Made by a program: the position numbers and the translations under genes. This document shows, piece by piece, positions 23,535 through 57,945 of a DNA stretch of 64,000 nt. Every line of letters starts with the position of its first letter. Positions within the stretch are counted from its first letter, which is position 1. This stretch comes from Candidatus Kaiserbacteria bacterium (GTDB lineage: Bacteria; Patescibacteriota; Minisyncoccia; Phycocordibacterales; Phycocordibacteraceae), in contig OY969413.1 in assembly GCA_963699165.1 (NCBI GenBank), positions 63,506 to 127,505 on the forward strand, written 5' to 3'. The notes under the pieces were generated by a model. The model ran no database searches. It was not told the DNA's origin and saw only the letters and a list, made by a program, of their open reading frames with translations.

Positions 23535-23912
23535 ATGCATGACCTGACGCCCTATAAAGACAAACCGTCTGACGAGTGGCTTTCTGTTACAGAGAAGTTG
23601 ATTAAGGAACATCCATTAGGACCTGAAGCGATGGTCGCAGTAGTAAAGAAATCATGGGATCAGATTTTCACGAGCAAAATCGGTGGAGTTATCCAGATAG
23701 GAGAAGAGATCGCCCTTACCCCTCAAATGATTGGTAATTTTCTGCATGTATTAGTTGCACATAATCTTTCAGAGAGCTCGCCGGAACTATGGCGGATAGA
23801 GGCTGCCGCTGGGGAAAAAGATGTTGTGTACGTGCCGGACGACTACTACTCATTGTACCGACCCCTATTCTTCAGACCACTTCCTAGACGAGTGAAGATA
23901 GTGTACGGGTGA
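23535..23912 (+). pseudogene. hypothetical protein, C-terminally truncated by IS-A copy 1
   Basis: The ORF is real-looking up to ~23853. Its last ~19 codons (..RPLFFRPLPRRVKIVYG) are encoded by the IS-A terminal repeat, and the same tail appears wherever IS-A abuts an ORF. Confidence 0.4.
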
Positions 23913-24696: not shown

Positions 24697-24950
24697 TTCT
24701 TTTTTTGGGTTTCAGACAGCTTGAGCGTCATGAGTCCAACAAGACGAAGGAGTTCGTCATTCTCTTTTCGAAGTCTCGCAATCTCAAGAACAGATGCGGT
24801 ACCGTCTTGCACTTTCGCACCAAGCCAGCCATAGATGGTGGTCTCGTGGATACCATGCTCTTTGGCCGCTTGGGCGACAGTGACACCATCGTTCTTGATT
24901 CGATTAATGATTTGTTCCTTCACCTCAGGAGCGATGCGGTATTGCTTCAT
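24693..24950 (-). CDS. IS3-family transposase OrfA (HTH)
   Basis: 85 aa: MKQYRIAPEVKEQIINRIKNDGVTVAQAAKEHGIHETTIYGWL.. with a leucine-zipper tail. Confidence 0.85.
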   Translation of the reverse strand: MKQYRIAPEVKEQIINRIKNDGVTVAQAAKEHGIHETTIYGWLGAKVQDGTASVLEIARLRKENDELLRLVGLMTLKLSETQKKK

Positions 24951-25029
24951 ATGACGTCATTCTAGCGGTTAATCCCGTCTAGAACATGGTCTGAAATTTG
25001 GGGGTCAGGTCAATTGTCATCCATAAGTT

Positions 25030-28586: not shown

Positions 28587-29012
28587 AAGAACTAAAAGAT
28601 ATTAAAAAAACAATAGATAGCGCAAACATTAATTTCTTAATTGGATCAGGGTTGTCTAGTCCTTTTCTAGAAATTCTCAACCAAATTGAAACCAAGCTAA
28701 CGAAAGCAGAAAACGAAAAGAACGATGTTGAAGTTTTAAGATTAATGAAGGAATACTTTGAGAAATCGATGCTTGGAAACCTAAAAATCGTTGCTGAAAT
28801 TACTGATAAGGTTAAAGATGGAGTTCTAAAAAATTATGAAGATTTTTATAAGAAAATTAATCACATAGTTTTAAAGAGGGAGAGTTCCATTCTAACAAAA
28901 CAAATTAATGTCTTTACCACAAACGTAGATATTTTCTCTGAAAAGGCGCTAGAAAATACAGGGATTGGAAGGTACCCCTTTCTTCGTACACTCATTCTAT
29001 AAGTATAGGATA

Positions 29013-29795
29013 CTATGCTCTGCTCAGAGCAACAAACTCTCTTGGCGCCATACGCAGTGCTGAGTGAATGCGAGCGGTATTGTGATAGTGGATGGTGAGG
29101 TAGATCTCAGCCACTAATTCACCTAACGTGTCGAATCGGTTCGGATCACCCAGGTCAATCTTGAACCCTTTGTAGAAGGACTCTTGGTAGCCATTCTCCC
29201 AGGGACATCCAGGACGAGACATAGATTGCTGTATGCCGATCGTTGCCACGAGCATCGCATAATCCTTTGAGGCATACTCGCTGCCTTGATCCGAATGGAT
29301 GACACGAGGTGGCGATTTGTGATGCAATGCAGAGAGAAGTGCATTCATGATGAGTTGCGTGCTGTGGGTGGTGAGGACTGACACACCGACAATCTCTCGG
29401 GAATAGACGTCAAGGATGGTAGCGACGTATACCCAGTACCCGTGGTACTTGAGGTAGGTGAAGTCACTCGCCCAGATGTCACCGTCCTGCTCGGGAGTTT
29501 GATGGAGCAAGAAGTTCGGGAATATACTGTCTTTTGTCTTTAGCACAAATCGCTTCTTTGCGGTCCTCCGATATGGTTTGATACCGAACAATTTCATCAC
29601 ACGCAGAATGCGCTTTTTGTTGACTTTGAGGTAGAGTGCCAACCGTTTGTGCCCATAGGCGGGATGGCTATGCAGAGCTTCTTCGATGAGTTGCTTTGTG
29701 TGCCAATCCCTCCGAGCCTGCTTCGGCTCGTAGTACAGCGTACTGCGAGCAATACCGCTCTCGCGTGCAAGAGCACTCTTGTTTTCTCTCATCAA
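29013..29795 (-). CDS. IS3-family transposase OrfB (IS-B)
   Basis: 260-aa rve integrase core (..HSDQGSEYAS..CPWENGYQESFYKGFK..). Confidence 0.85.
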   Translation of the reverse strand: MMRENKSALARESGIARSTLYYEPKQARRDWHTKQLIEEALHSHPAYGHKRLALYLKVNKKRILRVMKLFGIKPYRRTAKKRFVLKTKDSIFPNFLLHQTPEQDGDIWASDFTYLKYHGYWVYVATILDVYSREIVGVSVLTTHSTQLIMNALLSALHHKSPPRVIHSDQGSEYASKDYAMLVATIGIQQSMSRPGCPWENGYQESFYKGFKIDLGDPNRFDTLGELVAEIYLTIHYHNTARIHSALRMAPREFVALSRA

Positions 29796-30052
29796 GAGCC
29801 CCTTTTTTCTCCGTTTGAGAGTTTAAACGTCAATTCTCCGATGAGTGCTTTAAGGAGACCGTTCTCCTTCTTCACTCTGTTGTGCTCAATGATACTCACT
29901 CCTTTTGCAGAGGTGCCAAGCCAAGCATAGATAGTGACGGTACTGACTCCGTGTTCTTTCGCTGCCTCAGCGACACTGATGCCATCGTTTTTGATACGGT
30001 TGATAATCTGCTCCTTAATCTCAGGAGCAATACGGTATGCTTTCTTTGCCAT
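29792..30052 (-). CDS. IS3-family transposase OrfA (IS-B)
   Basis: 86 aa: MAKKAYRIAPEIKEQIINRIKNDGISVAEAAKEHGVSTVTIYAWL.. Confidence 0.85.
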   Translation of the reverse strand: MAKKAYRIAPEIKEQIINRIKNDGISVAEAAKEHGVSTVTIYAWLGTSAKGVSIIEHNRVKKENGLLKALIGELTFKLSNGEKRGS

Positions 30053-31010
30053 AGGTACATTCTAAATTAGCTGCTGGTATTTAGAATGAGTGTCCGACGT
30101 TTGGGGTACCTTGCAGATCGATTTTAATGATGGTTTCAACGGAAGATTCAATCCTAAATATGATGTGGGAAATTTCAAGAAGTCTTATTTCAAGAAGAGT
30201 CTTCATTATGAGAACACGTCCGAAATACCTGTATTTAATATACTGAAGTTACACGGGTCTCTTTCTTGGAAAGAAACTGATAGAGAGATTTATTTGGATA
30301 GTGTCTTGGAACAAGTAAAAGAAGTCGAAAATAATAAAGTGTCTGAATTTTATGATTGTTTCAAAAAATTGATGGTCGTTAATCCAACTAAACAAAAGTT
30401 TGGAGACACATTATTAAATCAACGCTACTACGACTTGCTCAGAATTTTCTCTAACGAACTAGAGAAGGATAATACCGTACTATTCGCGATGGGCTTTTCA
30501 TTTATGGATGAGCACATTTACGACCTAACATTGAGAGTTGCAAATTCTAATCCTACTCTGAATATTTACATATTTAGTCACGGCTCCAAACCGAGTGATA
30601 CCTATCTAAAACTGGAAGCGGATGCTAAAAATAAAAATATAAAAATCCTTATTCCGGAAAGTGGAAAAGAGTACAGTCTAGAAACAATAACTTCAGACTG
30701 TTTTGATAAGATTATTCTCCCTGAAAAAGAGGTTGGCAAAGGGCTTATAGATACTTCATTGCCACAAAAAGATGACTGACGACCTTACCTTAATGGAGAA
30801 ATACATAATTGATAACTCAATTTTTAGAATTGGGAAGGTTATTGAAATATCAGGTCAATCTGTAAAAGTAAAAGTAGATACTGGGAAAAACACATCCTCA
30901 ATCTTGTATAAGGGGGAGATAATGCAAAATATTTCTGTACAAGGATATGTGAAAATAAAGAAGTGGAAGGTACCCCTTTCTTCGTACACTCATTCTATAA
31001 GTATAGGATA

Positions 31011-31793
31011 CTATGCTCTGCTCAGAGCAACAAACTCTCTTGGCGCCATACGCAGTGCTGAGTGAATGCGAGCGGTATTGTGATAGTGGATGGTGAGGTA
31101 GATCTCAGCCACTAATTCACCTAACGTGTCGAATCGGTTCGGATCACCCAGGTCAATCTTGAACCCTTTGTAGAAGGACTCTTGGTAGCCATTCTCCCAG
31201 GGACATCCAGGACGAGACATAGATTGCTGTATGCCGATCGTTGCCACGAGCATCGCATAATCCTTTGAGGCATACTCGCTGCCTTGATCCGAATGGATGA
31301 CACGAGGTGGCGATTTGTGATGTAGCGCAGAGAGAAGTGCATTCATGATGAGTTGCGTGCTGTGGGTGGTGAGGACTGACACACCGACAATCTCTCGGGA
31401 ATAGACGTCAAGGATGGTAGCGACGTATACCCAGTACCCGTGGTACTTGAGGTAGGTGAAGTCACTCGCCCAGATGTCACCGTCCTGCTCGGGAGTTTGA
31501 TGGAGCAAGAAGTTCGGGAATATACTGTCTTTTGTCTTTAGCACAAATCGCTTCTTTGCGGTCCTCCGATATGGTTTGATACCGAACAATTTCATCACAC
31601 GCAGAATGCGCTTTTTGTTGACTTTGAGGTAGAGTGCCAACCGTTTGTGCCCATAGGCGGGATGGCTATGCAGAGCTTCTTCGATGAGTTGCTTTGTGTG
31701 CCAATCCCTCCGAGCCTGCTTCGGCTCGTAGTACAGCGTACTGCGAGCAATACCGCTCTCGCGTGCAAGAGCACTCTTGTTTTCTCTCATCAA
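31011..31793 (-). CDS. IS3-family transposase OrfB (IS-B copy 2)
   Basis: Identical to 29013..29795. Confidence 0.85.
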   Translation of the reverse strand: MMRENKSALARESGIARSTLYYEPKQARRDWHTKQLIEEALHSHPAYGHKRLALYLKVNKKRILRVMKLFGIKPYRRTAKKRFVLKTKDSIFPNFLLHQTPEQDGDIWASDFTYLKYHGYWVYVATILDVYSREIVGVSVLTTHSTQLIMNALLSALHHKSPPRVIHSDQGSEYASKDYAMLVATIGIQQSMSRPGCPWENGYQESFYKGFKIDLGDPNRFDTLGELVAEIYLTIHYHNTARIHSALRMAPREFVALSRA

Positions 31794-32050
31794 GAGCCCC
31801 TTTTTTCTCCGTTTGAGAGTTTAAACGTCAATTCTCCGATGAGTGCTTTAAGGAGACCGTTCTCCTTCTTCACTCTGTTGTGCTCAATGATACTCACTCC
31901 TTTTGCAGAGGTGCCAAGCCAAGCATAGATAGTGACGGTACTGACTCCGTGTTCTTTCGCTGCCTCAGCGACACTGATGCCATCGTTTTTGATACGGTTG
32001 ATAATCTGCTCCTTAATCTCAGGAGCAATACGGTATGCTTTCTTTGCCAT
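31790..32050 (-). CDS. IS3-family transposase OrfA (IS-B copy 2)
   Basis: Identical to 29792..30052. Confidence 0.85.
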   Translation of the reverse strand: MAKKAYRIAPEIKEQIINRIKNDGISVAEAAKEHGVSTVTIYAWLGTSAKGVSIIEHNRVKKENGLLKALIGELTFKLSNGEKRGS

Positions 32051-33246
32051 AGGTACATTCTAAATTAGCTGCTGGTATTTAGAATGAGTGTCCGACGTTT
32101 GGGGTACCTTGCATAAAGAATTGCCATTAATAGACAATACTTGTTTTTTACTCACAAAAGAGGAGTTTAATAAAATCCATGAATTTGTTAATAAAGATGA
32201 CAAACCTATCGAAATAGGAAGATTGGAATACGACGATGGTCAAAAAATAGAACTAGGCATAAACAAATTATTTGCTAGCCATATAGGTATATTTGGTAAT
32301 ACTGGAAGCGGTAAATCATATACGCTCGCAAAAATCTATAGAGAATTATTCAAAATCTTTAAAGATAGTCCGAAATTTCAAAAAAATGCAAAGATCTTCC
32401 TGATTGATTTTAATGGCGAATATATTGGAGAACTGGAAGAGAGTACTGGTAAATACAAAAGTAGAGATGTAATCGTTGAAGAGAAATATAAGAATATATA
32501 CGAACTAACGACGAGAAAAAAGATTGAAGATATTACGGAAGAAGAAAAGTTTCCTATCCACGAATCAGCAATAAAAGATTCTACGTTTTGGTCAATTTTT
32601 CTCTCGGCAACTGAAAAGACCCAGATACCTTTTTTGGAGAGAGCTATTAGAGATACTTATATTGAAGAAAGATTGAAGAAAGAGAAATCTTTTAAAGACC
32701 TTCTTAGTGCCAAGATATTTGATGCAGTAACACAAATAGACAAAAAGACCGAGAAGAGTGTAATAACGGATTTGTTAAACGAATTATTTCATTATTTAGA
32801 TAAAAACGAATCTATAAAAGAAGCGGAGAAATACTTCAGAGAGAACTACGGTATTTTCCAAAAGGAGGGAAAATCAGTATTTAAGTTAAATAAAAATAAT
32901 GCAGATCACTACTCGGATAATGCTAATGACATAAAGACATTTCAGGATGATATAAATGAGCAGGTTGCAAAAATATCGGAAGTAAAAGTCGACGAACTGT
33001 CCACAATAAAGAGATTGGGGCTACAAATCATAATTAAATACTACGATGAAATGATTCGTGGATTTTCAAACAGAGAACATCTCTCTCCTTTGATCAAGCG
33101 ACTTGACCAAAGGATTTTGGATCTAGAGAAGGTCTTAGTAGTAGTGGAAAAAATCAGTAAATCTGAAAAGAACTTCACTGTTATTGACCTGACCCCCAAA
33201 TTTCAGACCATGTTCTAGACGGGATTAACCGCTAGAATGACGTCAT

Positions 33247-33504
33247 ATGAAGCAATACCGCATCGCTCCTGAGGTGAAGGAACAAATCATTAATCGAATC
33301 AAGAACGATGGTGTCACTGTCGCCCAAGCGGCCAAAGAGCATGGTATCCACGAGACCACCATCTATGGCTGGCTTGGTGCGAAAGTGCAAGACGGTACCG
33401 CATCTGTTCTTGAGATTGCGAGACTTCGAAAAGAGAATGACGAACTCCTTCGTCTTGTTGGACTCATGACGCTCAAGCTGTCTGAAACCCAAAAAAAGAA
33501 GTGA
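33247..33504 (+). CDS. IS3-family transposase OrfA (IS-A copy 2)
   Basis: Identical to 24693..24950. Confidence 0.85.
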   Translation: MKQYRIAPEVKEQIINRIKNDGVTVAQAAKEHGIHETTIYGWLGAKVQDGTASVLEIARLRKENDELLRLVGLMTLKLSETQKKK

Positions 33505-34313
33505 GCAAAGAATCTCCGATTGGTACGCGCACAACAGCGCGTACTCTTGGTATAGCTCGTTCCACCTTCTGGTATCAAAAGAAGAAGCCTGACAAAGACT
33601 GGGCACTCAAATGCCGTATTGAAGAAGTCCTTCGAGAGTTTCCTTCGTATGGATACCGGAGAGTTGCCCTGTATCTCAAGGAGAACAAAAAGAAGGTTCA
33701 AAGAGTCATGCGACTCTTTGGTATCAAAGCATATCGAAGAAGAGGAAGACGGTGGAGGAAATCAAGGAAACAAGCCGTGGAGTATCCAAATCTCCTGATG
33801 CGGATTGTACCCGCCTATCCGCATCAAGCATGGGTCGCTGATTTCACTCATGTGTATTTCAAAGGGAAAGACATTCGTGTGGCAACCACCATGGACGTAT
33901 ACACTCGAAGTGTCGTTGGGCTCGCCATTGGTACGCGAGGTGGAACCGTACTTGTGACGCAGGCATTGTGCGCGGCACTTCTCAACCATCCTCGTCCCAC
34001 CATCTTTCACAGCGACAACGGAGTGGAATACAATGCCGCATCCTTCCGAGAGATGCTCATCAATTTCGGCATCAGCATCTCTCGCTCAAAAAAGGGCTGT
34101 CCGTGGGAGAACGGGTACCAAGAATCGTTCTATGGAAAATTCAAAACTGATCTGGGCGATCCCAATCGCTTCGATACGCTTGGTGAACTTGTTGCTGAAA
34201 TCTATCAGACAATTCACCGGTACAACACCGTGCGTATACACTCAACACTCAAGATGGCACCGAGAGAGTTTGCGAAATCGCACATCACCCGTACACTATC
34301 TTCACTCGTCTAG
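33501..34313 (+). CDS. IS3-family transposase OrfB (IS-A copy 2)
   Basis: Identical to 23884..24696. Confidence 0.85.
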   Translation: MSKESPIGTRTTARTLGIARSTFWYQKKKPDKDWALKCRIEEVLREFPSYGYRRVALYLKENKKKVQRVMRLFGIKAYRRRGRRWRKSRKQAVEYPNLLMRIVPAYPHQAWVADFTHVYFKGKDIRVATTMDVYTRSVVGLAIGTRGGTVLVTQALCAALLNHPRPTIFHSDNGVEYNAASFREMLINFGISISRSKKGCPWENGYQESFYGKFKTDLGDPNRFDTLGELVAEIYQTIHRYNTVRIHSTLKMAPREFAKSHITRTLSSLV

Positions 34314-36083
34314 GAAGTGGTCTGAAGAATAGGGGTCGGTACACTTTGCCTCCTTCGCTCTTATAAGAAGATTCTGTGCGGGATTGTATCCACCTCTCGT
34401 TGTTTCCTGCTTTACGATAAGTTCTTGGTCGGCATCCTTCTCGTTTAACGGATATGGCGGCGGAGGCGTATATGAACCTTCTGGAATGCGAATCTTTCCC
34501 GCCAAACGATCGCGCATTTCCGAAAACGCAAACCATAGCGCCATCAGTGCATCGCCAGTGTGGCCATCGGGGAACGCTCGCATTTCATTTACGAGTTGCG
34601 CGACGAGTTGTCGCGTTCGCGCGTCACTCTGACTATAAGGAAGGATGATCTTCCTCTGTTCAAAGAGAACCGCTAAACTATTCACGCCGATCGCTGGGTC
34701 ATTCTTTTCTCCGCCGGTCTTGTAGCTGGTGACGAGTGCACCGGAGTCGCCCAAGTCGCGATACATCATTTCCTGAAATCCGTTCGTCTCGACACGAGTT
34801 GCGGTCGGTCTCACGATCGCTTCATTGCGGATGACCATATCGCACGTTTCTTTCGGTGAGAACTTCCCGCGCCGTATGTTGCGAAGCACATAGTCGCCAA
34901 CTTTAAAAGTTCCGTCCGTTGAGCCGCGGAGAACACGGTCGAGAGTGAGAAGAACGGTGTCGTCATTCCAATTCTCGGTAGCGATAGCGAGATCGAGACC
35001 AGCGGTTGTCATTTCCACGTCATACTCGGTATACGGCGCGTCTTGCAAGATCAAGTCCTTGCCCTTAGCAAGTGCTGCTTCAATGTCCTTCTCAAGGAAC
35101 TTCTGATTCGGACGAATTGAAGGATCACACATATACATGCGTGCGAAGGCATATGGATTGGCGATGCGTTTCAGATAAAGATCTCCGTACGAGAAACGCT
35201 CCGGCCAGAGGACATCTATACCTTCCTCCATTTCCGCTTTATGCTCGGCACGATACTCGCTCGCTTTTGCTGTTTTTTCTTCAGGTGAAAGCGATTCATC
35301 GAGATGGATATTTGCCCATTCCTGCCACATATCCTGACGATTCGCTTCGTGCAGTATCGATGGTACGCGTTTTCTCACTTGAAATTGCGGGTCCTTGAGA
35401 AGATTGTTCATCAAGTCGTCCATGTGCCATGTGTTGCCAAGACAGATGAGACGACCGTCCGTCATTAAGACCGGCAGAAGCGTCGTGTATACCCAATCCT
35501 TGATCTTCGCACGCTGCTCCTCGGTCGCGGCGTTTTCCTGCGTCACCACATCATCAAGAATGATGATATCGGCACGCTTGGAAACGATTGACCCGAAGAG
35601 ACCGACGGCATTTACAGTCGGATCTTTTAGATTCAGTCCTTCGCGCTCGACCGTGAAAGAACTTCCGGTCCAATGTTCCTCACGTTTCTTTCCGTGACGC
35701 AGGCGCGGGGCGACACTGCGACGCTTCGGGTCGATCATCTTCGACCAAAGTCGATATTTCGGATTGCGCTCGATGTGCCCAATGATATCTGAAACGAATC
35801 CACGCGCGATTTCGCCAGTGCTCGATACGAGAAGAATGCGAATCTCGCGATTTTTGGCGATCTCCCAGAGAGGGTATGCGATGGAGCTATGGGTTGATTT
35901 ACCAAAACCGCGCGGCATCGCGATGGCGAGTTTTTGATAGGTATAGTTGGAGAGAGCATCGTCAAGTTCGTCCTGAAACGGCGCATTGTTTAGACCAATA
36001 ATTTCGGACACGAAGACGCGAAAATGCTCGGCCGCTATCGCGCAAAAGACGGCCGCTTCTTCAAGTTTTGGAATGTTACCCAT
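34302..36083 (-). CDS. terL: phage terminase large subunit (ATPase + nuclease); last ~14 codons supplied by IS-A copy 2 (C-terminally truncated)
   Basis: It has Walker A AMPRGFGKST and Walker B IIILDDV, followed by a C-terminal RNaseH-like nuclease domain. The start is taken at MGNIPKLEEAAVF; the longest ORF begins at 36122. Confidence 0.75.
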   Translation of the reverse strand: MGNIPKLEEAAVFCAIAAEHFRVFVSEIIGLNNAPFQDELDDALSNYTYQKLAIAMPRGFGKSTHSSIAYPLWEIAKNREIRILLVSSTGEIARGFVSDIIGHIERNPKYRLWSKMIDPKRRSVAPRLRHGKKREEHWTGSSFTVEREGLNLKDPTVNAVGLFGSIVSKRADIIILDDVVTQENAATEEQRAKIKDWVYTTLLPVLMTDGRLICLGNTWHMDDLMNNLLKDPQFQVRKRVPSILHEANRQDMWQEWANIHLDESLSPEEKTAKASEYRAEHKAEMEEGIDVLWPERFSYGDLYLKRIANPYAFARMYMCDPSIRPNQKFLEKDIEAALAKGKDLILQDAPYTEYDVEMTTAGLDLAIATENWNDDTVLLTLDRVLRGSTDGTFKVGDYVLRNIRRGKFSPKETCDMVIRNEAIVRPTATRVETNGFQEMMYRDLGDSGALVTSYKTGGEKNDPAIGVNSLAVLFEQRKIILPYSQSDARTRQLVAQLVNEMRAFPDGHTGDALMALWFAFSEMRDRLAGKIRIPEGSYTPPPPYPLNEKDADQELIVKQETTRGGYNPAQNLLIRAKEAKCTDPYSSDHFLDE

Positions 36084-49547: not shown

Positions 49548-50312
49548 TCAATACCTAAGCGAAGTGTTCAGAGGATCATCAAATCTGACTCTCACCATTA
49601 TTCTTTCCCCTTCGTACGGCATTCTACCATGCAGAGTCAGCTTATTATCAACGAGCAAGATGTCACCTCGTTCCCATGTATGACTGGCAATCAGGCATTT
49701 CTTCAAAGAATGCTCAACTGCTCCATATAGGTCGTCTTCTGTGTAACCCCTCGGGAGTTGCAGTATGCGGTTTCCGAATGTTAGTCCCCGATACCGCAGA
49801 TATTCTCGCTCGCATAGAGGGTGAATTGCCTTTTCCCCAACATACGATGCACTGGAATACTCGATGTCGACATCTACAATCTCAGGGTAATCGCTTCGAA
49901 TCAGGCAGGCAGCTTTCCGGGCGTCATACACATTTGTCATGCCGCCAGTTTCAGAAGGTTTGACGCATCCCAAAGCAAAATATGGGGTTATGCCCGCCCG
50001 CGCATATATGCCTTCCGTATGTATCGCCAAACTATCCTTATCCCTCCGGGCCTGCAGGGTTATATATGACGCCGAACTAGCGATTCTTTGACCAAAAAGG
50101 ACAGCGATTAGAATTATGTACGTCGCCAGGTTGGCATCAGTTTCCGGGAGAGAACCTGGTTTAATCAATACACATCCGAATTCTCTTAATTGTTTTAGAA
50201 CGGGAACGGTCGCCTCATTGATTGACGTCTCGCTGTTTATTGAAGCAATTCCAATCATACACGAACACCTTTCCTGACAAGAAACTTTTAGTTCCCGCAT
50301 GTACAATATCAA
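49548..50312 (-). CDS. TauD/TfdA-like Fe(II)/2-oxoglutarate dioxygenase family protein
   Basis: It has a HTEG (HxD/E) motif and a C-terminal LVDNKLTLHGR matching the TfdA-family WDNRxxxHxR signature. Confidence 0.5.
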   Translation of the reverse strand: MILYMRELKVSCQERCSCMIGIASINSETSINEATVPVLKQLREFGCVLIKPGSLPETDANLATYIILIAVLFGQRIASSASYITLQARRDKDSLAIHTEGIYARAGITPYFALGCVKPSETGGMTNVYDARKAACLIRSDYPEIVDVDIEYSSASYVGEKAIHPLCEREYLRYRGLTFGNRILQLPRGYTEDDLYGAVEHSLKKCLIASHTWERGDILLVDNKLTLHGRMPYEGERIMVRVRFDDPLNTSLRY

Positions 50313-50340
50313 ATAACTACGGACCGCAAGTATTTGTCTT

Positions 50341-51042
50341 GGCCACGCATAATTTTCTGCTGAAAATTTGCGCGGCTCCTAAAGGACTGCGGTTTGTATG
50401 CCAATCGCTTCGCTCTTGGACAAACCGGAAGCCCTCCTCGGGCCTCATTCAGCAGAATGACCTACTGGGGTCGCCCTGCGGCTTTCGAGTCCCTTACTGC
50501 GCTACAAAACAATAATCGCCACACGCTTCGCGTATGACTCGTTTGTTTTGTGGCGGGACTCGGTCACGAATAATTCGTTCGCCGCCGCTCACGAATTTTC
50601 GCGACCCCGTCTCGGCCACGCACTCGCTTCGCTCGCGCGGCTTCGCGGCCTCCGACTTTCGAGTCCCTTACCGCGCTACAAAATGATAGTCGCCGGTCAC
50701 TTTCGTGACCGGCTCCTTCATTTTGTGCGCGGGCTCGGCCACGCATAATTTTCTGCTGAAAATTTGCGCGGCCCCGCCTCCGGCCGTCGCCGTCCGGCTT
50801 TCGAGTCCCTTACCGCGCTACAAAACAATAATCGCCACACGCTTCGCGTATGGCTCGTTTGTTTTGTGGCGGGACTCGGTCACGAATAATTCGTTCGCCG
50901 CCACTCACGAATTTTCGCGACCCCGTCTCGGCCACGCGCTCGCTTCGCTCGCGCGGCTTCGCGGCCTCCGACTCTCGAGTCCCTTACTGCGCTACAAAAC
51001 AATAATCGCCACACGCTTCGCGTATGGCTCGTTTGTTTTGTG
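50341..51042 (+). repeat. complex tandem repeat array containing four copies of a tRNA-Val 3'-end fragment (TTCGAGTCCCTTACCGCGC)
   Basis: There are two full 174-bp units (~50483-50656 and ~50800-50973) plus a 67-bp partial unit, interleaved with a variant unit (~50657-50799). Each unit starts with CTTTCGAGTCCCTTACYGCGCTACAAAA. The motif GGCCACGCATAATTTTCTGCTGAAAATTTGCGCGGC recurs at ~50341 and ~50737. The ORFs here are repeat artefacts. Confidence 0.7.
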
Positions 51043-51106
51043 CCCCCTAACGGTACCGCAAGACACCAAGTGAGGCAATTGCAAGGCCTTTGGGCGACCT
51101 ATACAA

Positions 51107-51125
51107 CGTACGGCTTGAGGCCTAA
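51107..51125 (+). repeat. 19/20-bp direct repeat (left copy) TTGAGG-CCTAACGGTCACG; right copy at ~58281-58300 next to tRNA-Val
   Basis: The two copies are 19/20 identical and 7.2 kb apart. They bracket the DGR, the IS481-like element, two IS-A copies, the IS-B fragments and a serine-recombinase gene fragment. Confidence 0.5.
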
Positions 51126-51537
51126 CGGTCACGATCAGAACTGGACACTTTAGACACTACATAGCGTGTTCCACCAGTGTCCTGTTTTCGGGATTCCAGC
51201 AAGCCTTTCAAGGGTATTTGAGAGATTCGGAGCCTTAACCCACCATCCCGGAGGGAGTCCAACGGTACCGCACCAAAAAACGAACAAACCGAACACGAAA
51301 GCGCATATTTTGAGTGTTCGTATTCTGTTCGGTTCTGGAGGCTCATAGGCACCCAATTCGTGAGACAGGTGTCTCATTTGCCCTCCACAGCATGGCTTAT
51401 TTGCTCAATATGAGACAAATGAGACACAAAAGAGGGGTATTTGGGGTGTCTCATTTGTCGAAGTTAAAATGCCAATAAATGCCAATTTTTGAGAATGTGT
51501 AAGAAATAAAAACAAGGATACATATGTTGCATATGTG

Positions 51538-52563
51538 TCAAAGATTTCGGCTTCGGTTTGTATCTGCGCCGAGGGTGATTGCCACCTTGGTTTTAGGGAT
51601 AAGCGCCGCGAGCGTGTGCGCGTTGCCGTGCGAGAGCAGTCCTCGGTACGATGCGAGTGTAGCCTCCTCCGGTTCTCCTTGGAGCGCCTTGAGCATCCTT
51701 CGCTTGGTGCTGGTGCGCAGCACGTCGTGATCGGGGAAATGCACCCAGCCGAGAAAGTCGATGCCTGACGCGAGGGTGGAGATGGAGACCTTGTTCGGGT
51801 GCAGCTCGAGCTTGAGCGTATCGCGCAGGTATTCGCGTATGTGCGGCAGTAGCGCTTCAAGCTCGATTCGATCCATTGAGAGCACTACGAAGTCGTCGGC
51901 ATAACGGAGGTAGTAGCGGGCTTTGAGGCGATGCTTCACCCATTGGTCGAACTCGTTCATGTACACGTTCACGAGGAGCTGGCTGGTGAGGTTGCCGAGC
52001 GGGAGACCCTTCCCCGGCGTGCCGGAGCGGAAGCTCTCGATTACGTTTTGGAGCAGGGCGAGCGTGCGCTCGTCGTTGACGTGATTGCGCAAAATGCCGA
52101 GGAGCACTTCGTGATCGATGGAGGCGAAGAACTTGCGCACGTCGCACTTGAGTACCCACAGCGTCTTGGTGTGATTCTTGCTCGCTTTGTACGCATAGCG
52201 CTTGAAGGCGGCTATGGCGCGATGGGTACCCTTGTCGAGGCGGCAGGAGTACGAGTCGGGAATGAAGGTGCGATTGAAATAGGGATAGAGAACTCGATAG
52301 ATGGCGTGATGCGTGAGGCGGTCGCGCACTCGTGCCTTGTGAATGTCGCGGGGCTTGGGGTCACTAATCCTGAAATGCGAATACGGGCCGTGGCGATAGG
52401 TGCCGGACGCCAGCTCGTCATGGAGTTGCGAGATGTTTTCAACAAGGTTGTACTCGAAAGCCTGCACATCTTTCTTCTGCCGCTTGCCGCGTATAAATTC
52501 TTTCCATGCGTCGAGCAGATTATTGGGAGAAATGATACTTTCGTATGTATGAGTGATTTCCAT
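51538..52563 (-). CDS. diversity-generating retroelement (DGR) reverse transcriptase
   Basis: The RT domain carries the YADDFVV (YxDD) box and the DGR-specific LPLGNLTSQLLVNVYMNEFD motif. The N-terminus resembles DGR RTs (..RGKRQKKDVQAFEYNLVENISQLHDELASGTYRHGPYSHFRISDPKPRDI..). The start is taken at MEITHTYE; the longest ORF to 52779 adds a GC-rich low-complexity leader. Confidence 0.85.
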   Translation of the reverse strand: MEITHTYESIISPNNLLDAWKEFIRGKRQKKDVQAFEYNLVENISQLHDELASGTYRHGPYSHFRISDPKPRDIHKARVRDRLTHHAIYRVLYPYFNRTFIPDSYSCRLDKGTHRAIAAFKRYAYKASKNHTKTLWVLKCDVRKFFASIDHEVLLGILRNHVNDERTLALLQNVIESFRSGTPGKGLPLGNLTSQLLVNVYMNEFDQWVKHRLKARYYLRYADDFVVLSMDRIELEALLPHIREYLRDTLKLELHPNKVSISTLASGIDFLGWVHFPDHDVLRTSTKRRMLKALQGEPEEATLASYRGLLSHGNAHTLAALIPKTKVAITLGADTNRSRNL

Positions 52564-52604
52564 TCTTTTAGTTCCCCCCCCCCGCAATCGCCCCTGACAA
52601 GCTC

Positions 52605-52964
52605 GTGCCGGTGGTGTTGAAACTAAAGGAAGCATACCTCGCGTGGCAGCAGGCGCTTCCGCATGTCGCCAAGGCGCGGCGGCAGACCGTGGGGGCGCGG
52701 ATCGATGGGGCGCTCCTCGACACGCTTGAGCACGCCTTTCGTGCCGGGTATGCCTCGGGCACTCGCAAGCTGGAGGCACTTGAGTATTCGATCGAGAAAC
52801 TCGATGCCGCGAGGTTCTTCCTGCTTGTGGGCTGGGAAAGCGCCGCGCTCACGAACGCGCAGTACATGCGCATAGCAGGACTCTTAGTGGATGCGAGTAA
52901 GATGCTCGTCGGGTGGAAGGCGTATATGGAAAAGAAAACTCCCGCGAATAGCGAGAGAAAGTAA
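52605..52964 (+). CDS. putative Avd-like four-helix-bundle accessory protein, encoded on the strand opposite to RT/TR
   Basis: 119 aa with a GTG start. Its helical heptad pattern (LKEAYLAWQQA.., ..LEALEYSIEKLDAARFFLLVGWESAALTNAQYMRIAGLLVDASKMLVGWKAYM) resembles DGR Avd / 23S-IVS four-helix-bundle proteins. The same-strand ORF over this region (52568..53062) is Ser-rich and not protein-like. Confidence 0.4.
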   Translation: MPVVLKLKEAYLAWQQALPHVAKARRQTVGARIDGALLDTLEHAFRAGYASGTRKLEALEYSIEKLDAARFFLLVGWESAALTNAQYMRIAGLLVDASKMLVGWKAYMEKKTPANSERK

Positions 52965-52967
52965 GAC

Positions 52968-53079
52968 GAGTTTCGGACGAGGAGTCGATTGTCAGCGTTC
53001 CAGCGATTGTCGTTGCCGAGCCTGTTGACGTTCGCGTTCCACCTCGAGTCGTCGCGATTCACGTTGGCGACCGAGACGC
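52968..53079 (-). repeat. DGR template repeat (TR), 112 bp
   Basis: It is 102/112 identical to the VR. All 10 differences sit at adenines of the TR sense (minus) strand: 9 A->G and 1 A->C. TR codons are rich in AAC/AAT (Asn). Confidence 0.85.
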
Positions 53080-53319
53080 TATGTGCCGCTCACCATCCAT
53101 ACCACCGCCCATCGAATGCTCTCCGGGCTGTATCTGATTTGAGGCCGTGAGCCCGCAAGCGGGCGACACCAACTTGAATTTCTTTTTTCGGGCGTTTATA
53201 CCCGGAACCTCGCCACCCGAAGCCCGAGGGCCGCAAATGCCAGCGTGTTCGTATAAAATTATACCCCTCTTCGCGCAAGCGCGAAGAGGGGTAATTCGAG
53301 GAAGCCCGAATACAGGGAC

Positions 53320-54015
53320 TTAGGATCCCAGTTTCGAAGCGTCCAAGTTGCGGACGAGGAGCCGATCGTCAGCGTCCCAGCGATCGTCGTTGCCGAGCCT
53401 GCTGACGTCCGCGTTCCACCTCGAGTCGCCGCGATTCACGCCGGCGACCGAGACGCTGCCGTTCTTGTCTTCGACGAAGAACCAGTTGGCCCAGCCGTCG
53501 GTGCGCATGCCGGTATTGCCCGGCTTGCTCTCCGTGGCCTCGACCATGGCCTCGGCTTGCGCCAACGTCATGGTGTGGCCGCGCTCTATGAGGAGCGCTG
53601 CCAGCTTCTCGATCGAAGTGTCCGCGGGAACGCCGAGGACAAACGCTGCCCATTGCGCGAACGTCGCGTCCCGCGAGGGAGTGAGCGTCGTGATGGTGCA
53701 GGCGGCCGCTTCAGGCTGTTCCTTGGGGAGCCAGCCGTCGAAGTCGCTGTCGCGGTACGCATAGCGCGAGGCGGTGAAGCACTTCTTCGTCGGCTTGCCA
53801 ACGACCACAGCGAGCTCTGTCGTCGCGGAAGCGGAAAGCAATGCGGCCGGTGCAGTTGCGCTCTCCGGTGGCACGAGGCCAGCAAGGAACTTCTTGGTCG
53901 CGGCGGGATTGTTCATCCAGCCGTCCATGATCTCGTCGGTCAGCGTGTCGGGAAAATTCTGGATCATGAACCCCGCGAATGCGGCGGTTTTCTTGTCGTA
54001 GGCCTTCGCACTCAT
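53320..54015 (-). CDS. DGR target (variable) protein with a C-terminal ligand-binding VR, probably a C-type-lectin/FGE-like fold
   Basis: 231 aa. The C-terminal ~40 residues are encoded by the VR, with the upstream ..GWANWFFVED.. motif common in DGR targets. Confidence 0.75.
   Translation of the reverse strand: MSAKAYDKKTAAFAGFMIQNFPDTLTDEIMDGWMNNPAATKKFLAGLVPPESATAPAALLSASATTELAVVVGKPTKKCFTASRYAYRDSDFDGWLPKEQPEAAACTITTLTPSRDATFAQWAAFVLGVPADTSIEKLAALLIERGHTMTLAQAEAMVEATESKPGNTGMRTDGWANWFFVEDKNGSVSVAGVNRGDSRWNADVSRLGNDDRWDADDRLLVRNLDASKLGS
53346..53457 (-). repeat. DGR variable repeat (VR) at the 3' end of the target gene
   Basis: It encodes ..NRGDSRWNADVSRLGNDDRWDADDRLLVRN.., where TR would encode NRDDSRWNANVNRLGNDNRWNADNRLLVRN. 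It ends ~24 nt before the target stop codon. Confidence 0.85.
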
Positions 54016-54133
54016 GTGCGCTTCTCCTTATGACAGTGGTTACTCAGGCCGGATGGCGCGAGTTGAAGCCCTATGTCCGTAACGGAATCAAGGTGCTTCT
54101 GAGATACATTATACACATAGAATAGAGGTTGCG

Positions 54134-55033
54134 TCAAGGCGTTGTACGCGTCCAGTACTTTTGGCAGTCCCCGACGGTTAATGTCGACACAATATACCGC
54201 AAGGGGGACACCATGCCGAGCGACTGGTGCGGGCGTTTGGTGTTGTACCAGATCAGCCAGTCGACAAGCTTCAGATTGAAGGAATGAATATCGTCCCGCA
54301 GCAGGCCCCGATTCAGCATGATGAAGTCCTCGGAGACGGTGCGATTGAATCGTTCGACGTGGGCATTCATCTTGGGAGTGCGGGGGCGGGTGTGAAAGTG
54401 CGTGAGCCCGAGTTCGGCACAGGCATCCTCGAAGTGTTTGGCGAACTCGCTCCCGTTGTCGGTCTGCAACTCGTCGATATCGAAGGGGCAAACCTCGATG
54501 ACTCGGCGAAGGAAGTCGTCCGCGCTTCTCGACGAGTGGTTCGTATACGCGCCCGCAAAGGCGAACTTCCGCTCCACGTCCACTGCCGTGAGGACGTACC
54601 GCTTCACGCCGTCGATGAAGCGGACGACGGTATCGAGCTCCATGCCGCGCTTGCCGGTGCGGCGAAGCTTGGTACGGCGTTTCTGCGGTGTTTCCGTGTG
54701 ATTGCCCGTACGTGCGTGGAACGAGAGCCGGCTCTGCTGCGGGAGCAGACCGCGGTTCTTCAAATCCAGAATGACCCGCCCAACGTATGACTCCGACACG
54801 GAGTACCCTTCTTCGCGCAGGAGAACGGCAAGCTTTGCTTTCCCAAGCCGGGGATGCGCCTGTCGTTCGCGGATGATGAAATCCTCGACCTCGGGCAGAA
54901 CAGTCCTCCTTCGACGCGCCTTCGGCGCAGTGCTCTTCGGGTCAAGTGCATCAATGCGGCCCTCGTGGGCTTTGAGTTCCTCCTTCCAGCGATACAAGGT
55001 GCGCTCCGAGGTGCCAAAGGCGTCGTATGCGGC
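54134..55033 (-). pseudogene. IS481-family transposase, 5'-truncated by IS-A copy 3
   Basis: rve integrase core (..LQTDNGSEFAKHF.., ..HVERFNRTV..). The N-terminal HTH begins abruptly at the IS-A boundary (~55034). Confidence 0.7.
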
Positions 55034-55095
55034 TGACCTGACCCCCAAATTTCAGACCATGTTCTAGACGGGATTAACCGCTAGAATGACGTCAT

Positions 55096-55353
55096 ATGAA
55101 GCAATACCGCATCGCTCCTGAGGTGAAGGAACAAATCATTAATCGAATCAAGAACGATGGTGTCACTGTCGCCCAAGCGGCCAAAGAGCATGGTATCCAC
55201 GAGACCACCATCTATGGCTGGCTTGGTGCGAAAGTGCAAGACGGTACCGCATCTGTTCTTGAGATTGCGAGACTTCGAAAAGAGAATGACGAACTCCTTC
55301 GTCTTGTTGGACTCATGACGCTCAAGCTGTCTGAAACCCAAAAAAAGAAGTGA
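55096..55353 (+). CDS. IS3-family transposase OrfA (IS-A copy 3)
   Basis: Identical to the other IS-A orfA copies. Confidence 0.85.
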   Translation: MKQYRIAPEVKEQIINRIKNDGVTVAQAAKEHGIHETTIYGWLGAKVQDGTASVLEIARLRKENDELLRLVGLMTLKLSETQKKK

Positions 55354-56162
55354 GCAAAGAATCTCCGATTGGTACGCGCACAACAGCGCGTACTCTTGGT
55401 ATAGCTCGTTCCACCTTCTGGTATCAAAAGAAGAAGCCTGACAAAGACTGGGCACTCAAATGCCGTATTGAAGAAGTCCTTCGAGAGTTTCCTTCGTATG
55501 GATACCGGAGAGTTGCCCTGTATCTCAAGGAGAACAAAAAGAAGGTTCAAAGAGTCATGCGACTCTTTGGTATCAAAGCATATCGAAGAAGAGGAAGACG
55601 GTGGAGGAAATCAAGGAAACAAGCCGTGGAGTATCCAAATCTCCTGATGCGGATTGTACCCGCCTATCCGCATCAAGCATGGGTCGCTGATTTCACTCAT
55701 GTGTATTTCAAAGGGAAAGACATTCGTGTGGCAACCACCATGGACGTATACACTCGAAGTGTCGTTGGGCTCGCCATTGGTACGCGAGGTGGAACCGTAC
55801 TTGTGACGCAGGCATTGTGCGCGGCACTTCTCAACCATCCTCGTCCCACCATCTTTCACAGCGACAACGGAGTGGAATACAATGCCGCATCCTTCCGAGA
55901 GATGCTCATCAATTTCGGCATCAGCATCTCTCGCTCAAAAAAGGGCTGTCCGTGGGAGAACGGGTACCAAGAATCGTTCTATGGAAAATTCAAAACTGAT
56001 CTGGGCGATCCCAATCGCTTCGATACGCTTGGTGAACTTGTTGCTGAAATCTATCAGACAATTCACCGGTACAACACCGTGCGTATACACTCAACACTCA
56101 AGATGGCACCGAGAGAGTTTGCGAAATCGCACATCACCCGTACACTATCTTCACTCGTCTAG
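55350..56162 (+). CDS. IS3-family transposase OrfB (IS-A copy 3)
   Basis: Identical to the other IS-A orfB copies. Confidence 0.85.
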   Translation: MSKESPIGTRTTARTLGIARSTFWYQKKKPDKDWALKCRIEEVLREFPSYGYRRVALYLKENKKKVQRVMRLFGIKAYRRRGRRWRKSRKQAVEYPNLLMRIVPAYPHQAWVADFTHVYFKGKDIRVATTMDVYTRSVVGLAIGTRGGTVLVTQALCAALLNHPRPTIFHSDNGVEYNAASFREMLINFGISISRSKKGCPWENGYQESFYGKFKTDLGDPNRFDTLGELVAEIYQTIHRYNTVRIHSTLKMAPREFAKSHITRTLSSLV

Positions 56163-56192
56163 GAAGTGGTCTGAAGAATAGGGGTCGGTACA

Positions 56193-56756
56193 AGTTTAAA
56201 CGTCAATTCTCCGATGAGTGCTTTAAGGAGACCGTTCTCCTTCTTCACTCTGTTGTGCTCAATGATACTCACTCCTTTTGCAGAGGTGCCAAGCCAAGCA
56301 TAGATAGTGACGGTACTGACTCCGTGTTCTTTCGCTGCCTCAGCGACACTGATGCCATCGTTTTTGATACGGTTGATAATCTGCTCCTTAATCTCAGGAG
56401 CAATACGGTATGCTTTCTTTGCCATAGGTACATTCTAAATTAGCTGCTGGTATTTAGAATGAGTGTCCGACGTTTGGGGTACCTTGCATACTGACTCCGT
56501 GTTCTTTCGCTGCCTCAGCGACACTGATGCCATCGTTTTTGATACGGTTGATAATCTGCTCCTTAATCTCAGGAGCAATACGGTATGCTTTCTTTGCCAT
56601 AGGTACATTCTAAATTAGCTGCTGGTATTTAGAATGAGTGTCCGACGTTTGGGGTACCTTGCAACGGTTGATAATCTGCTCCTTAATCTCAGGAGCAATA
56701 CGGTATGCTTTCTTTGCCATAGGTACATTCTAAATTAGCTGCTGGTATTTAGAATG
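56193..56756 (-). mobile_element. three nested/tandem partial copies of the IS-B orfA-proximal end (~294, ~172 and ~93+30 bp)
   Basis: All three fragments share the IS-B end ...GTCCGACGTTTGGGGTACCTTGCA. The first (56193..~56488) includes a truncated orfA (56159..56425, different C-terminus). The second is ~56489..56663. The third (~56664..56756) is split by IS-A copy 4 and continues at ~57916..57945. Confidence 0.7.
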
Positions 56757-56786
56757 TGTACCGACCCCTATTCTTCAGACCACTTC

Positions 56787-57599
56787 CTAGACGAGTGAAG
56801 ATAGTGTACGGGTGATGTGCGATTTCGCAAACTCTCTCGGTGCCATCTTGAGTGTTGAGTGTATACGCACGGTGTTGTACCGGTGAATTGTCTGATAGAT
56901 TTCAGCAACAAGTTCACCAAGCGTATCGAAGCGATTGGGATCGCCCAGATCAGTTTTGAATTTTCCATAGAACGATTCTTGGTACCCGTTCTCCCACGGA
57001 CAGCCCTTTTTTGAGCGAGAGATGCTGATGCCGAAATTGATGAGCATCTCTCGGAAGGATGCGGCATTGTATTCCACTCCGTTGTCGCTGTGAAAGATGG
57101 TGGGACGAGGATGGTTGAGAAGTGCCGCGCACAATGCCTGCGTCACAAGTACGGTTCCACCTCGCGTACCAATGGCGAGCCCAACGACACTTCGAGTGTA
57201 TACGTCCATGGTGGTTGCCACACGAATGTCTTTCCCTTTGAAATACACATGAGTGAAATCAGCGACCCATGCTTGATGCGGATAGGCGGGTACAATCCGC
57301 ATCAGGAGATTTGGATACTCCACGGCTTGTTTCCTTGATTTCCTCCACCGTCTTCCTCTTCTTCGATATGCTTTGATACCAAAGAGTCGCATGACTCTTT
57401 GAACCTTCTTTTTGTTCTCCTTGAGATACAGGGCAACTCTCCGGTATCCATACGAAGGAAACTCTCGAAGGACTTCTTCAATACGGCATTTGAGTGCCCA
57501 GTCTTTGTCAGGCTTCTTCTTTTGATACCAGAAGGTGGAACGAGCTATACCAAGAGTACGCGCTGTTGTGCGCGTACCAATCGGAGATTCTTTGCTCAC
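56787..57599 (-). CDS. IS3-family transposase OrfB (IS-A copy 4)
   Basis: Identical to the other copies. Confidence 0.85.
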   Translation of the reverse strand: MSKESPIGTRTTARTLGIARSTFWYQKKKPDKDWALKCRIEEVLREFPSYGYRRVALYLKENKKKVQRVMRLFGIKAYRRRGRRWRKSRKQAVEYPNLLMRIVPAYPHQAWVADFTHVYFKGKDIRVATTMDVYTRSVVGLAIGTRGGTVLVTQALCAALLNHPRPTIFHSDNGVEYNAASFREMLINFGISISRSKKGCPWENGYQESFYGKFKTDLGDPNRFDTLGELVAEIYQTIHRYNTVRIHSTLKMAPREFAKSHITRTLSSLV

Positions 57600-57853
57600 T
57601 TCTTTTTTTGGGTTTCAGACAGCTTGAGCGTCATGAGTCCAACAAGACGAAGGAGTTCGTCATTCTCTTTTCGAAGTCTCGCAATCTCAAGAACAGATGC
57701 GGTACCGTCTTGCACTTTCGCACCAAGCCAGCCATAGATGGTGGTCTCGTGGATACCATGCTCTTTGGCCGCTTGGGCGACAGTGACACCATCGTTCTTG
57801 ATTCGATTAATGATTTGTTCCTTCACCTCAGGAGCGATGCGGTATTGCTTCAT
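57596..57853 (-). CDS. IS3-family transposase OrfA (IS-A copy 4)
   Basis: Identical to the other copies. Confidence 0.85.
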   Translation of the reverse strand: MKQYRIAPEVKEQIINRIKNDGVTVAQAAKEHGIHETTIYGWLGAKVQDGTASVLEIARLRKENDELLRLVGLMTLKLSETQKKK

Positions 57854-57945
57854 ATGACGTCATTCTAGCGGTTAATCCCGTCTAGAACATGGTCTGAAAT
57901 TTGGGGGTCAGGTCAATGAGTGTCCGACGTTTGGGGTACCTTGCA

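Follow-up and report, generated by a model that had tools for sequence, protein, structure and literature searches.

How is the template RNA of a diversity-generating retroelement (DGR) organised in a cellular, non-phage setting, and which of its parts would prime and stop the synthesis of complementary DNA (cDNA)? This question is raised by a locus on contig OY969413.1 of a Candidatus Kaiserbacteria bacterium, analysed within a stretch of 64,000 nucleotides (64 kb) that is called the window throughout. The host chromosome belongs to the Minisyncoccia/Paceibacteria (Patescibacteria). To our knowledge, the sole mechanistic model of a DGR comes from one phage, in which the RNA scaffold lies on the other side of the template from the conserved RNA described below.

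The best explanation of the locus, in which we have high confidence, is an intact chromosomal DGR of the Patescibacteria lineage, also known as the candidate phyla radiation (CPR). It is a standard Patescibacteria DGR, and the interpretation given in an original prediction from the letters alone is supported. The characteristic parts are present together: a reverse transcriptase (RT) with DGR motifs, a template repeat (TR) and a variable repeat (VR) that differ in an adenine-specific way, and an Avd-like gene. They are laid out as target gene with VR, template-RNA gene, inverted avd and RT, with target, TR and RT all on the minus strand. The original prediction had called the element complete on the strength of RT, TR, VR and target, all of which are present, but it had missed the Avd-like gene. 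The value of the find lies less in the DGR itself than in the RNA anatomy that comparison with relatives exposes: a conserved, structured leader stands upstream of TR and suggests that the template RNA is wired differently from the phage model. The main parts of the cassette are the following.

51538..52563, minus strand: DGR RT, 341 aa, with LGNLTSQ and YADD motifs
52605-52964, plus strand: avd-like gene, 119 aa, between TR and RT and on the opposite strand to both
52969..53080, minus strand: TR, 112 nt, non-coding and intergenic, its 29 adenines clustered in AAY codons when read in the VR frame
53346..53457, minus strand: VR, 112 nt, in frame in the target open reading frame (ORF), ending 23 nt before the stop
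53320..54015, minus strand: target gene, 231 aa (ORF 54015..53320), with VR at its C-terminus

A structured leader upstream of the template repeat

Relatives were collected by a scan of one genome per species, which yielded 24 Patescibacteria loci. Thirteen of these share the order target(+), VR, about 260 nt, TR, avd(-), RT(+), and the order is also kept in 71 metagenome loci. In the window, the parts of the putative template-RNA gene are arranged as follows.

53258..53263, minus strand: -10-like box TATAAT, following a GC hairpin and 7 nt upstream of the first conserved leader nucleotide
53081..53250, minus strand: structured leader, about 170 nt, directly 5' of TR, with its covariance-model core at 53187..53077
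53169..53158 with 53094..53083, minus strand: helix P3, 12 bp, long-range, ending 3 nt before TR
53171..53174, minus strand: AGUU, one nt 5' of P3, invariant as AGUU/ACUU, candidate primer strand
52929..52957, minus strand: TR-3' stem-loop, a 7-bp stem with UUUUCUUUUC behind it, lying 12 nt downstream of TR in sequence antisense to the avd 3' end

The leader is a conserved RNA structure. RNAalifold folds the leaders of 13 loci into six helices with 37 pairs, of which 19 show compensatory changes. In this alignment 97.5% of cells are paired, compared with 35-50% when the partners are slid, and the covariation score is 0.53, compared with 0.08-0.18 in controls; none of 500 shuffles reaches the observed values. 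Invariant G-U pairs in the leader indicate that the RNA is read on the TR strand. The leader begins with a conserved block (GAACACGCTGGCAT...), kept in all relatives, which starts 7 nt after the TATAAT box, and the relatives carry a TATAAT-, TATACT- or TATATT-like box at the same distance. By its sequence and position, the box at 53258..53263 is a candidate promoter of the template RNA.

A covariance model of 111 positions was built for the 3' two-thirds of the leader and run on 96 sources, namely the window, 15 genome loci and 80 metagenome loci fetched by RT alignment. It matched 79 loci (78 distinct sequences). Every locus that reaches about 650 nt upstream of RT contains one match, and in all but one the match lies on the RT strand just before TR. 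The exception, L084:1533-1608, is on the minus strand, downstream of RT, where the contig end truncates it; a second, inverted cassette may be its source. Of the 80 metagenome loci, 78 lack a match to the present target protein. When the 79 loci are aligned to the model, 97.6% of cells are paired, 20 of 22 pairs are compensatory, and the covariation score is 0.72, compared with at most 0.16 in controls, although an alignment fitted in this way leans towards the model. The window contains a single match, at 53187..53077, and it is the top-scoring of all, with 114 bits.

Rfam 15 has no match at E<=1 over 52850-53400 and none at gathering score in the cassette; the database is expected to include the RT-1 to RT-19 motifs of PMC5737381. 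No description of such a leader came up in literature searches, which did not reach Paul et al. 2017 (Nat Microbiol), a paper that may describe it.

On the other side of TR, the stem-loop at 52929..52957 resembles a terminator. It shows compensatory changes in relatives, and stem-loop plus U-tract are found in 72 of 76 loci, which suggests that the template RNA ends there. In the 110 nt after the U-tract, which are antisense to avd, no conserved structure beyond the stem-loop was detectable.

One contig holds both a complete cassette and a partial one. In L018 (MHWB01000011.1, 46998-59895), a second target with its own VR is followed downstream by a full leader and a TR copy, with no avd or RT. 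The complete cassette of L019 lies 60 kb away on the same contig; the two have identical covariance-model scores, and the TR segment that they share is nearly identical. These sequences suggest that template-RNA genes can be duplicated and served in trans.

A proposed geometry for priming and stopping

In Bordetella phage BPP-1, the spacer (Sp) RNA lies 3' of TR. Handa et al. (bioRxiv 10.1101/2023.10.23.563531) assign five elements to it: immediately after TR a stem-loop to which Avd binds, a primer strand (Sp53-56 paired with TR118-121), a strand that forms a 'stop' duplex with sequence immediately upstream of TR, a small stem-loop with adenosines behind it, and a single-stranded 'thumb ring' together with a stem-loop that RT binds. 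The survey in the same work took in only 40 nt upstream and 100 nt downstream of TRs.

In the present leader, the elements after the 5' strand of P3 are, in order, a 4-bp stem-loop, the A-rich CAAAU/CGAAU, the conserved AGAUnCAG, which is single-stranded, and a stem-loop that varies. The order of elements is the same as in the BPP-1 Sp, but the module stands 5' instead of 3' of the template. By analogy, this permuted 5' module may supply both a primer strand and a strand of the stop duplex, along with a small stem-loop, adenosines left unpaired, a stretch of single-stranded RNA and a stem-loop that binds RT.

The candidate primer strand is AGUU. Together with the leader bases upstream of it, AGUU is complementary to the 3' end of TR, AACU (52972..52969), and to the 12-nt flank before the stem-loop; in the window the two strands form 11 of 15 ungapped pairs. 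Across the loci, leader and flank of the same locus pair better than those of swapped loci (10.15 compared with 9.33 pairs, -6.3 compared with -4.7 kcal/mol, permutation p<1/5000), and this locus-specific complementarity holds with 45 cluster representatives. A primer role of the AGUU segment would parallel Sp53-56:TR118-121 of BPP-1. The limits of the repeats fall at the corresponding points: the homology of TR and VR sets in 3 nt after P3, and the variation ends directly ahead of AAC, as would result if the cDNA stopped at P3 and started next to AACU.

From these observations we infer the following course of events. A discrete template-RNA gene on the minus strand, made up of the -10-like box, the leader of about 170 nt, the 112-nt TR and the stem-loop with its U-tract, would be transcribed, and RT and the Avd-like protein would bind the RNA. 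The leader segment X-AGUU would pair with the TR 3' end AACU-X' and stack on P3, which abuts the TR 5' end, so that the whole TR would be looped between primer duplex and stop duplex. RT would copy TR into cDNA, misincorporating specifically opposite adenines, and the cDNA would replace VR at the C-terminus of a small protein with a putative lectin fold. Each rewriting of VR would re-randomise nine AAY codons and several GAC, AGG and AGC codons, which by arithmetic from the codon table gives on the order of 1e14 possible proteins. Read in this way, the template RNA here and in its large Patescibacteria clade would be a circular permutation of the phage RNA, with upstream priming as in retrons, to which a tract of 9-12 G may add a slipped-strand switch for hypermutation. 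We put this forward tentatively and give it somewhat less than even weight.

Two features of the proposed primer duplex fit the permuted arrangement poorly: clean covariation with the TR motif is missing at the middle base of AGUU/ACUU, and the duplex in the window is interrupted (11/15 pairs). Three more specific pairings were tried and rejected. For strict covariation of the second base of AGUU/ACUU with AACU/AAGU/AAAU in TR, the pattern is inconsistent, and only the longer flank helix is locus-specific. Pairing of an A-rich run in the leader with the 3' U-tract lacks covariation at the interrupting bases, and in many loci a small hairpin has this A-run as its loop. Priming by the 3' end of the U-tract on GAAA in TR is not general, several TRs reading CGCAAC or CGCTAC.

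A serious alternative, which we regard as quite possible though short of an even chance, is that the 5' RNA is real but serves as a stabilising or regulatory leader or as a separate small RNA, with priming from 3' of TR, in the antisense of avd, as in BPP-1. Avd-binding stem-loops and upstream-downstream duplexes have been put forward for many Avd-containing DGRs, including those of CPR (bioRxiv 10.1101/2023.10.23.563531); a stem-loop follows TR here at the BPP-1 position, and GACGAG, 70 nt after TR, is complementary to CTCGTC within TR. Against priming from the 3' side, the 110 nt after the U-tract are avd coding sequence, in which conservation tracks the Avd protein (MLVGW) and no conserved structure is detectable, and the U-tract itself points to an RNA that ends before this region. 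In addition, the sequence that lies within 15 nt upstream of TR is already paired, with heavy covariation, to a strand further upstream; since P3 occupies this sequence, it is not free to pair downstream.

Adenine-specific differences and possible current activity

The pairing of TR and VR that the original prediction had described is confirmed. An exact, ungapped alignment with an offset of 377 gives 102/112 identical positions (a repeat search reports a two-copy direct repeat of 91%), and base by base the identity collapses right outside the 112-nt limits. The predicted position of VR was correct; that of TR, given as about 52968-53079, was one base low and is corrected to 52969-53080. VR lies near the stop of the 231-aa target as described, in frame and ending 23 nt before the stop codon.

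On the minus strand, each of the 10 mismatches sits at a TR adenine, nine being A>G and one A>C, as had been claimed. With 29 A in 112 nt, the hypergeometric probability of this is P=3.5e-7, and none of the 83 non-A positions of TR differs. In the VR frame TR reads as an Asn-rich segment with ten AAY codons; the changes in VR are N>G, D>G, N>D (four times) and N>S, plus two synonymous CGA changes. When only the non-A positions of TR were scored, on both strands, no further VR-like copy of TR was found in the 64-kb window.

The same signature extends to the relatives. The TR/VR pairs of 12 relatives add 184 mismatches, every one on a TR adenine, 45 of them A>C and 45 A>T; with the window included, the totals are 103 A>G, 46 A>C and 45 A>T. 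Since the relatives also show A>C and A>T, the signature in this lineage is A>N with a G bias. The counts of substitutions in the original prediction stand, but its treatment of the single A>C as a product of mutagenesis probably does not. A difference of CGA-AAC in TR and CGC-AAC in VR recurs at the same place in 9 of the 12 relatives and in the window, and since the CGA/CGC change is synonymous, selection on the protein cannot explain the recurrence. The A>C of the window is probably a fixed difference between the initiation of mutagenic homing (IMH) site and its counterpart IMH*, and the nine genuine events in the window are then all A>G. The corresponding feature is the following.

53346..53363, minus strand: IMH-like 3' end of VR, GGCTCCTCGTCCGCAACT, GC-rich and nearly free of A

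This end differs from the IMH*-like end of TR (52969-52986) at CGC/CGA and at one ordinary A>G, with GGC in VR and GAC in TR. A role as IMH would be in keeping with its likeness to the BPP-1 site (PMC5758913).

The element had also been called recently active. This would follow from the absence of differences at non-A positions, which is the one basis for it, and several facts pull the other way. Only nine of the 28 mutable adenines differ, and all nine are A>G; the share of A>G in the relatives is about 51-54%, which by simple arithmetic puts the chance of nine out of nine at about 0.002-0.004. This is unusual but not decisive, and selection or a small number of homing rounds could account for it. 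Besides, the window is one consensus sequence. The VRs of the closest relatives differ at A positions, but these relatives, at about 90% nucleotide identity, are different strains and not population variants.

Could the element be a DGR by descent that is now inactive, its VR written in the past and its cassette silent or regulated off? We consider this unlikely. It would suit the small number of substitutions, nine and all A>G, where most relatives have 11-21 over a comparable repeat length; an insertion sequence (IS) element abuts the upstream region of the target; and L027, a close relative, appears to have lost avd and most of RT, which shows that decay occurs in the lineage. In the window, however, all ORFs are of full length with catalytic motifs, and TR and VR agree at all 83 non-A positions, a pattern that drift after inactivation would erode. 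The leader, the stem-loop, the G-tract and the promoter-like boxes match the family consensus as well, the leader with the top score of the scan.

The closest relatives are L025 (a Logan contig from ERR11630400), L026 and L027, all at about 90% nucleotide identity to the window. L025 and L026 each have two tandem 231-aa targets, and each VR matches the TR. In L027, TR is directly followed by sequence like the 3' end of RT, as would result from a deletion of avd and most of RT or from a chimeric contig.

The reverse transcriptase and the Avd-like protein

The start codon of RT is most likely the ATG at 52563, from which homologues align; the mechanically called ORF (51538..52779) begins at a GTG and overlaps the neighbouring gene. 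The protein has an RVT_1 domain (1.6e-24), and the LGNLTSQ and YADDFVV motifs that the original prediction named are present in the ORF. In a search of all PDB sequences the best match is chain A of 8ub7 (E=3.9e-48, residues 8-318), an entry described in the database as the DGR ribonucleoprotein of a Bordetella phage, whose chain A is bRT. Group II intron RTs, together with an RT chain labelled 'retron-type' by its depositors, come next at about 1e-18; a retron RT follows at about 1e-6, and Drt RTs at 1e-6 or weaker. In the alignment, LGNLTSQ falls on IGSLTSQ of bRT and YADD on YMDD. Both motifs are invariant in 11 related RTs, and the protein is 57-72% identical to the RTs of the same cassette in other Patescibacteria.

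Among NCBIfam models the top match is the group II RT/maturase model, with 149 bits against a cutoff of 300, and no DGR RT model is among the matches. The protein reaches the curated cutoff of neither the group II nor the retron models and has no maturase/X domain extension; at gathering score Rfam finds neither a group II intron family nor a retron family in any part of the window. These comparisons support, at the level of sequence, a grouping of the present RT with the DGR RT, apart from group II intron, retron and defence RTs, a check that had been proposed with the original prediction and that it passes (8ub7, 3.9e-48).

An ordinary duplication diverged by strand-biased transitions (e.g., cytosine deamination, C>T on the plus strand) beside an unrelated group II intron, retron or defence RT would match the single transition type of 9 of the 10 differences (T in TR, C in VR on the plus strand) and the top NCBIfam model of the RT (149 bits, below 300), but it is effectively refuted by the A>C and A>T changes of relatives with the same cassette (45 + 45 of 184), by an RT whose match to bRT is better by 30 orders of magnitude than that to group II RTs and which has no maturase/X extension, by the presence of an Avd homologue, by the lack of any Rfam match between RT and target and of any group II intron family in the window, and by the coincidence of variable protein-family columns with TR adenines.

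The Avd-like protein matches the NCBIfam model DivGenRetAVD ('DGR protein Avd') over its full length with E=7.5e-8, and the Pfam bAvd family weakly (0.029). A single-sequence AlphaFold2 model, of low confidence (pLDDT 63.5), has four long helices, and all its top PDB matches in Foldseek are bAvd (4dwl, 8ub7) with TM scores of 0.6-0.74. Two results tell against the assignment: the NCBIfam score of 32.6 bits is below the curated cutoff of 80, and single-sequence and profile searches against PDB gave no match. Inversion of the gene is seen in 13 genome loci and in every one of the 71 metagenome loci that reach upstream of RT (84 loci). In the 78 metagenome loci that lack a match to the present target protein, Avd is about 30% identical.

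The variable target protein

The target belongs to a family of 231-aa proteins with 89 homologues. It has no Pfam domain and consists of a variable N-terminal three-helix module, followed by a divergent domain that may resemble C-type lectins and the formylglycine-generating enzyme (FGE) in fold and that carries VR. Fold comparison points to a lectin/FGE-like fold with TvpA of Treponema denticola among the top matches; Foldseek against PDB gave nothing significant. TvpA and other DGR variable proteins with C-type-lectin/FGE folds count among the closest known systems. The hypervariable columns of the family alignment coincide with the Asn and Asp codons of TR, in agreement with the earlier statement that an Asn-rich scaffold is diversified. 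The family may be one of the unclassified 'UVR' classes.

Residues 1-55 of the target (54015..53851) form the three-helix module, which is swapped among homologues that are otherwise 75-90% identical. Compared with P0002-P0004, P0039, P0056 and P0087, there are at least three unrelated N-termini, all of them without an obvious signal peptide, and the module may serve for docking as an interchangeable domain. Two non-coding features flank the gene.

54108..54137, minus strand: promoter-like site TTGACG-18-TATAAT, 11/12 in a consensus scan, upstream of the target
53262..53293, minus strand: GC-rich hairpin with a 14-bp stem and a 4-nt loop, followed by a T-rich run, 53 nt after VR

The block 54048-54140 upstream of the target is conserved in the close relatives L025-L027, and by its sequence the site at 54108..54137 is a putative promoter. 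The hairpin gives its 121-nt segment a z of -6.0. It is kept, with different stem sequences, in all relatives inspected, and none is found after TR. It is a plausible terminator of the target gene and/or the hairpin/cruciform element of the DGR; as an inverted repeat linked to IMH it stands 53 nt from VR, and it is also plausible as a terminator.

The G-tract and the genomic surroundings

One more conserved feature lies inside the cassette, between the divergent avd and RT.

52574..52583, minus strand (C10 on plus): G10 homopolymer within the 41 nt that separate avd and RT, its end 10 nt ahead of the RT ATG

This is the only G/C run of at least 8 in the window. A G run of at least 7 is present at the same place in 67 of 72 relatives (mode 9-10, range 7-12), and 640 kb of loci contain 80 such runs, 76 of which stand just upstream of RT. 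The tract could be a slipped-strand switch or an element of the untranslated region, and it is a candidate control point for switching hypermutation on. No length polymorphism was seen in the only near-identical pair of loci, both having the same length, and no literature was found on a G-tract between avd and RT.

The surroundings are rich in IS elements, as the original prediction had noted. Four 100%-identical IS3-type copies of about 1.16 kb (23853-25014, 33183-34347, 55034-56193 and 56753-57917), each with orfA (HTH_Tnp_1) and orfB (rve), are present in the window; two of them stand inverted, 564 nt apart, next to the DGR. Near the target, an rve-type transposase gene (54134-55048) ends where the conserved target-upstream block begins and abuts the promoter-like region. 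A separate tandem duplication of about 2 kb is found at 28966-32115.

Downstream of RT come non-coding repeats and then genes of the TauD, NUDIX and SpoU families. The repeats at 50338-51050 include two copies of about 234 nt, 94% identical, with a period of 316 nt, and shorter units (ggctttcgagtcccttac...gtttgttttgtg) that occur about four times. Immediately beyond the RT stop, the interval 51365-51460 holds two copies of GTGTCTCATTTG and one of its reverse complement, CAAATGAGACAC, all within 100 nt; a terminator region is one possible reading, the ends of a small mobile element another. Rfam gives only chance-level matches on 50200-51600.

Comparison with known systems

The closest known systems are the DGRs of CPR bacteria. 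In Architecture B3, TR is followed by avd on the reverse strand and then by RT, and this layout accounts for 90% of CPR DGRs (Wu et al. 2018, PMC5758913). One DGR clade (DGR clade 2) is confined to Patescibacteria, and its targets typically have no transmembrane or other recognisable domains (Roux et al. 2021, PMC8144416). The present cassette has TR, then a reverse-strand avd, then RT, in a CPR host; as it matches the published B3 layout, it adds one member to a known kind, for which an inverted avd had already been described. It resembles the CPR elements (PMC5758913, PMC8144416) in gene order, inverted avd, host phylum and adenine-specific mismatches, and also in being chromosomal with a target that has no recognisable domain or transmembrane segment (PMC8144416). 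No essential difference was found. In the papers on CPR DGRs that were examined, no mention of the leader RNA or the G-tract was found.

As a DGR, the element is one more example of a clade that has been catalogued in thousands of metagenomes. Since B3 makes up about 90% of CPR DGRs, the leader amounts to a testable proposal for how cDNA may be primed and stopped in the commonest cellular DGRs, and leader RNA, RT and Avd form a compact set for reconstitution.

With BPP-1 (mtd-VR, avd, TR, Sp, brt), the element shares a homologous RT with an IGxxxSQ-type motif and an Avd-like four-helix protein. It also shares a VR at the C-terminus of its target, a protein of putatively lectin-like fold, and a stem-loop right after TR, which stands here at the position of the Avd-binding stem-loop of BPP-1; the GC-rich, IMH-like end and the GC hairpin downstream are candidate counterparts of the phage elements. 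The proposed geometry would be common to both as well, with a primer duplex stacked on a stop duplex and the two flanking TR. The differences lie in the arrangement. Here avd is inverted between TR and RT, the sequence 3' of TR is antisense avd, and the BPP-1 type of RNA, a 3' non-coding spacer with primer, stop-duplex strand and RT-binding stem-loop, is absent; the conserved structured RNA stands 5' of TR instead. Moreover, the present element is cellular and not phage-borne, and its target is small and apparently cytoplasmic, not a tail fibre.

Retrons offer the other comparison. The RT lies outside the retron clade, and the product would be a mutagenised homing cDNA and not the multicopy single-stranded DNA (msDNA) of retrons. 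If the priming model is true, though, the topology would be that of the retron msr-msd RNA: a single RNA would carry the template and, 5' of it, the priming nucleotide, which would be positioned by pairing of primer-adjacent sequence with the 3' end of the template.

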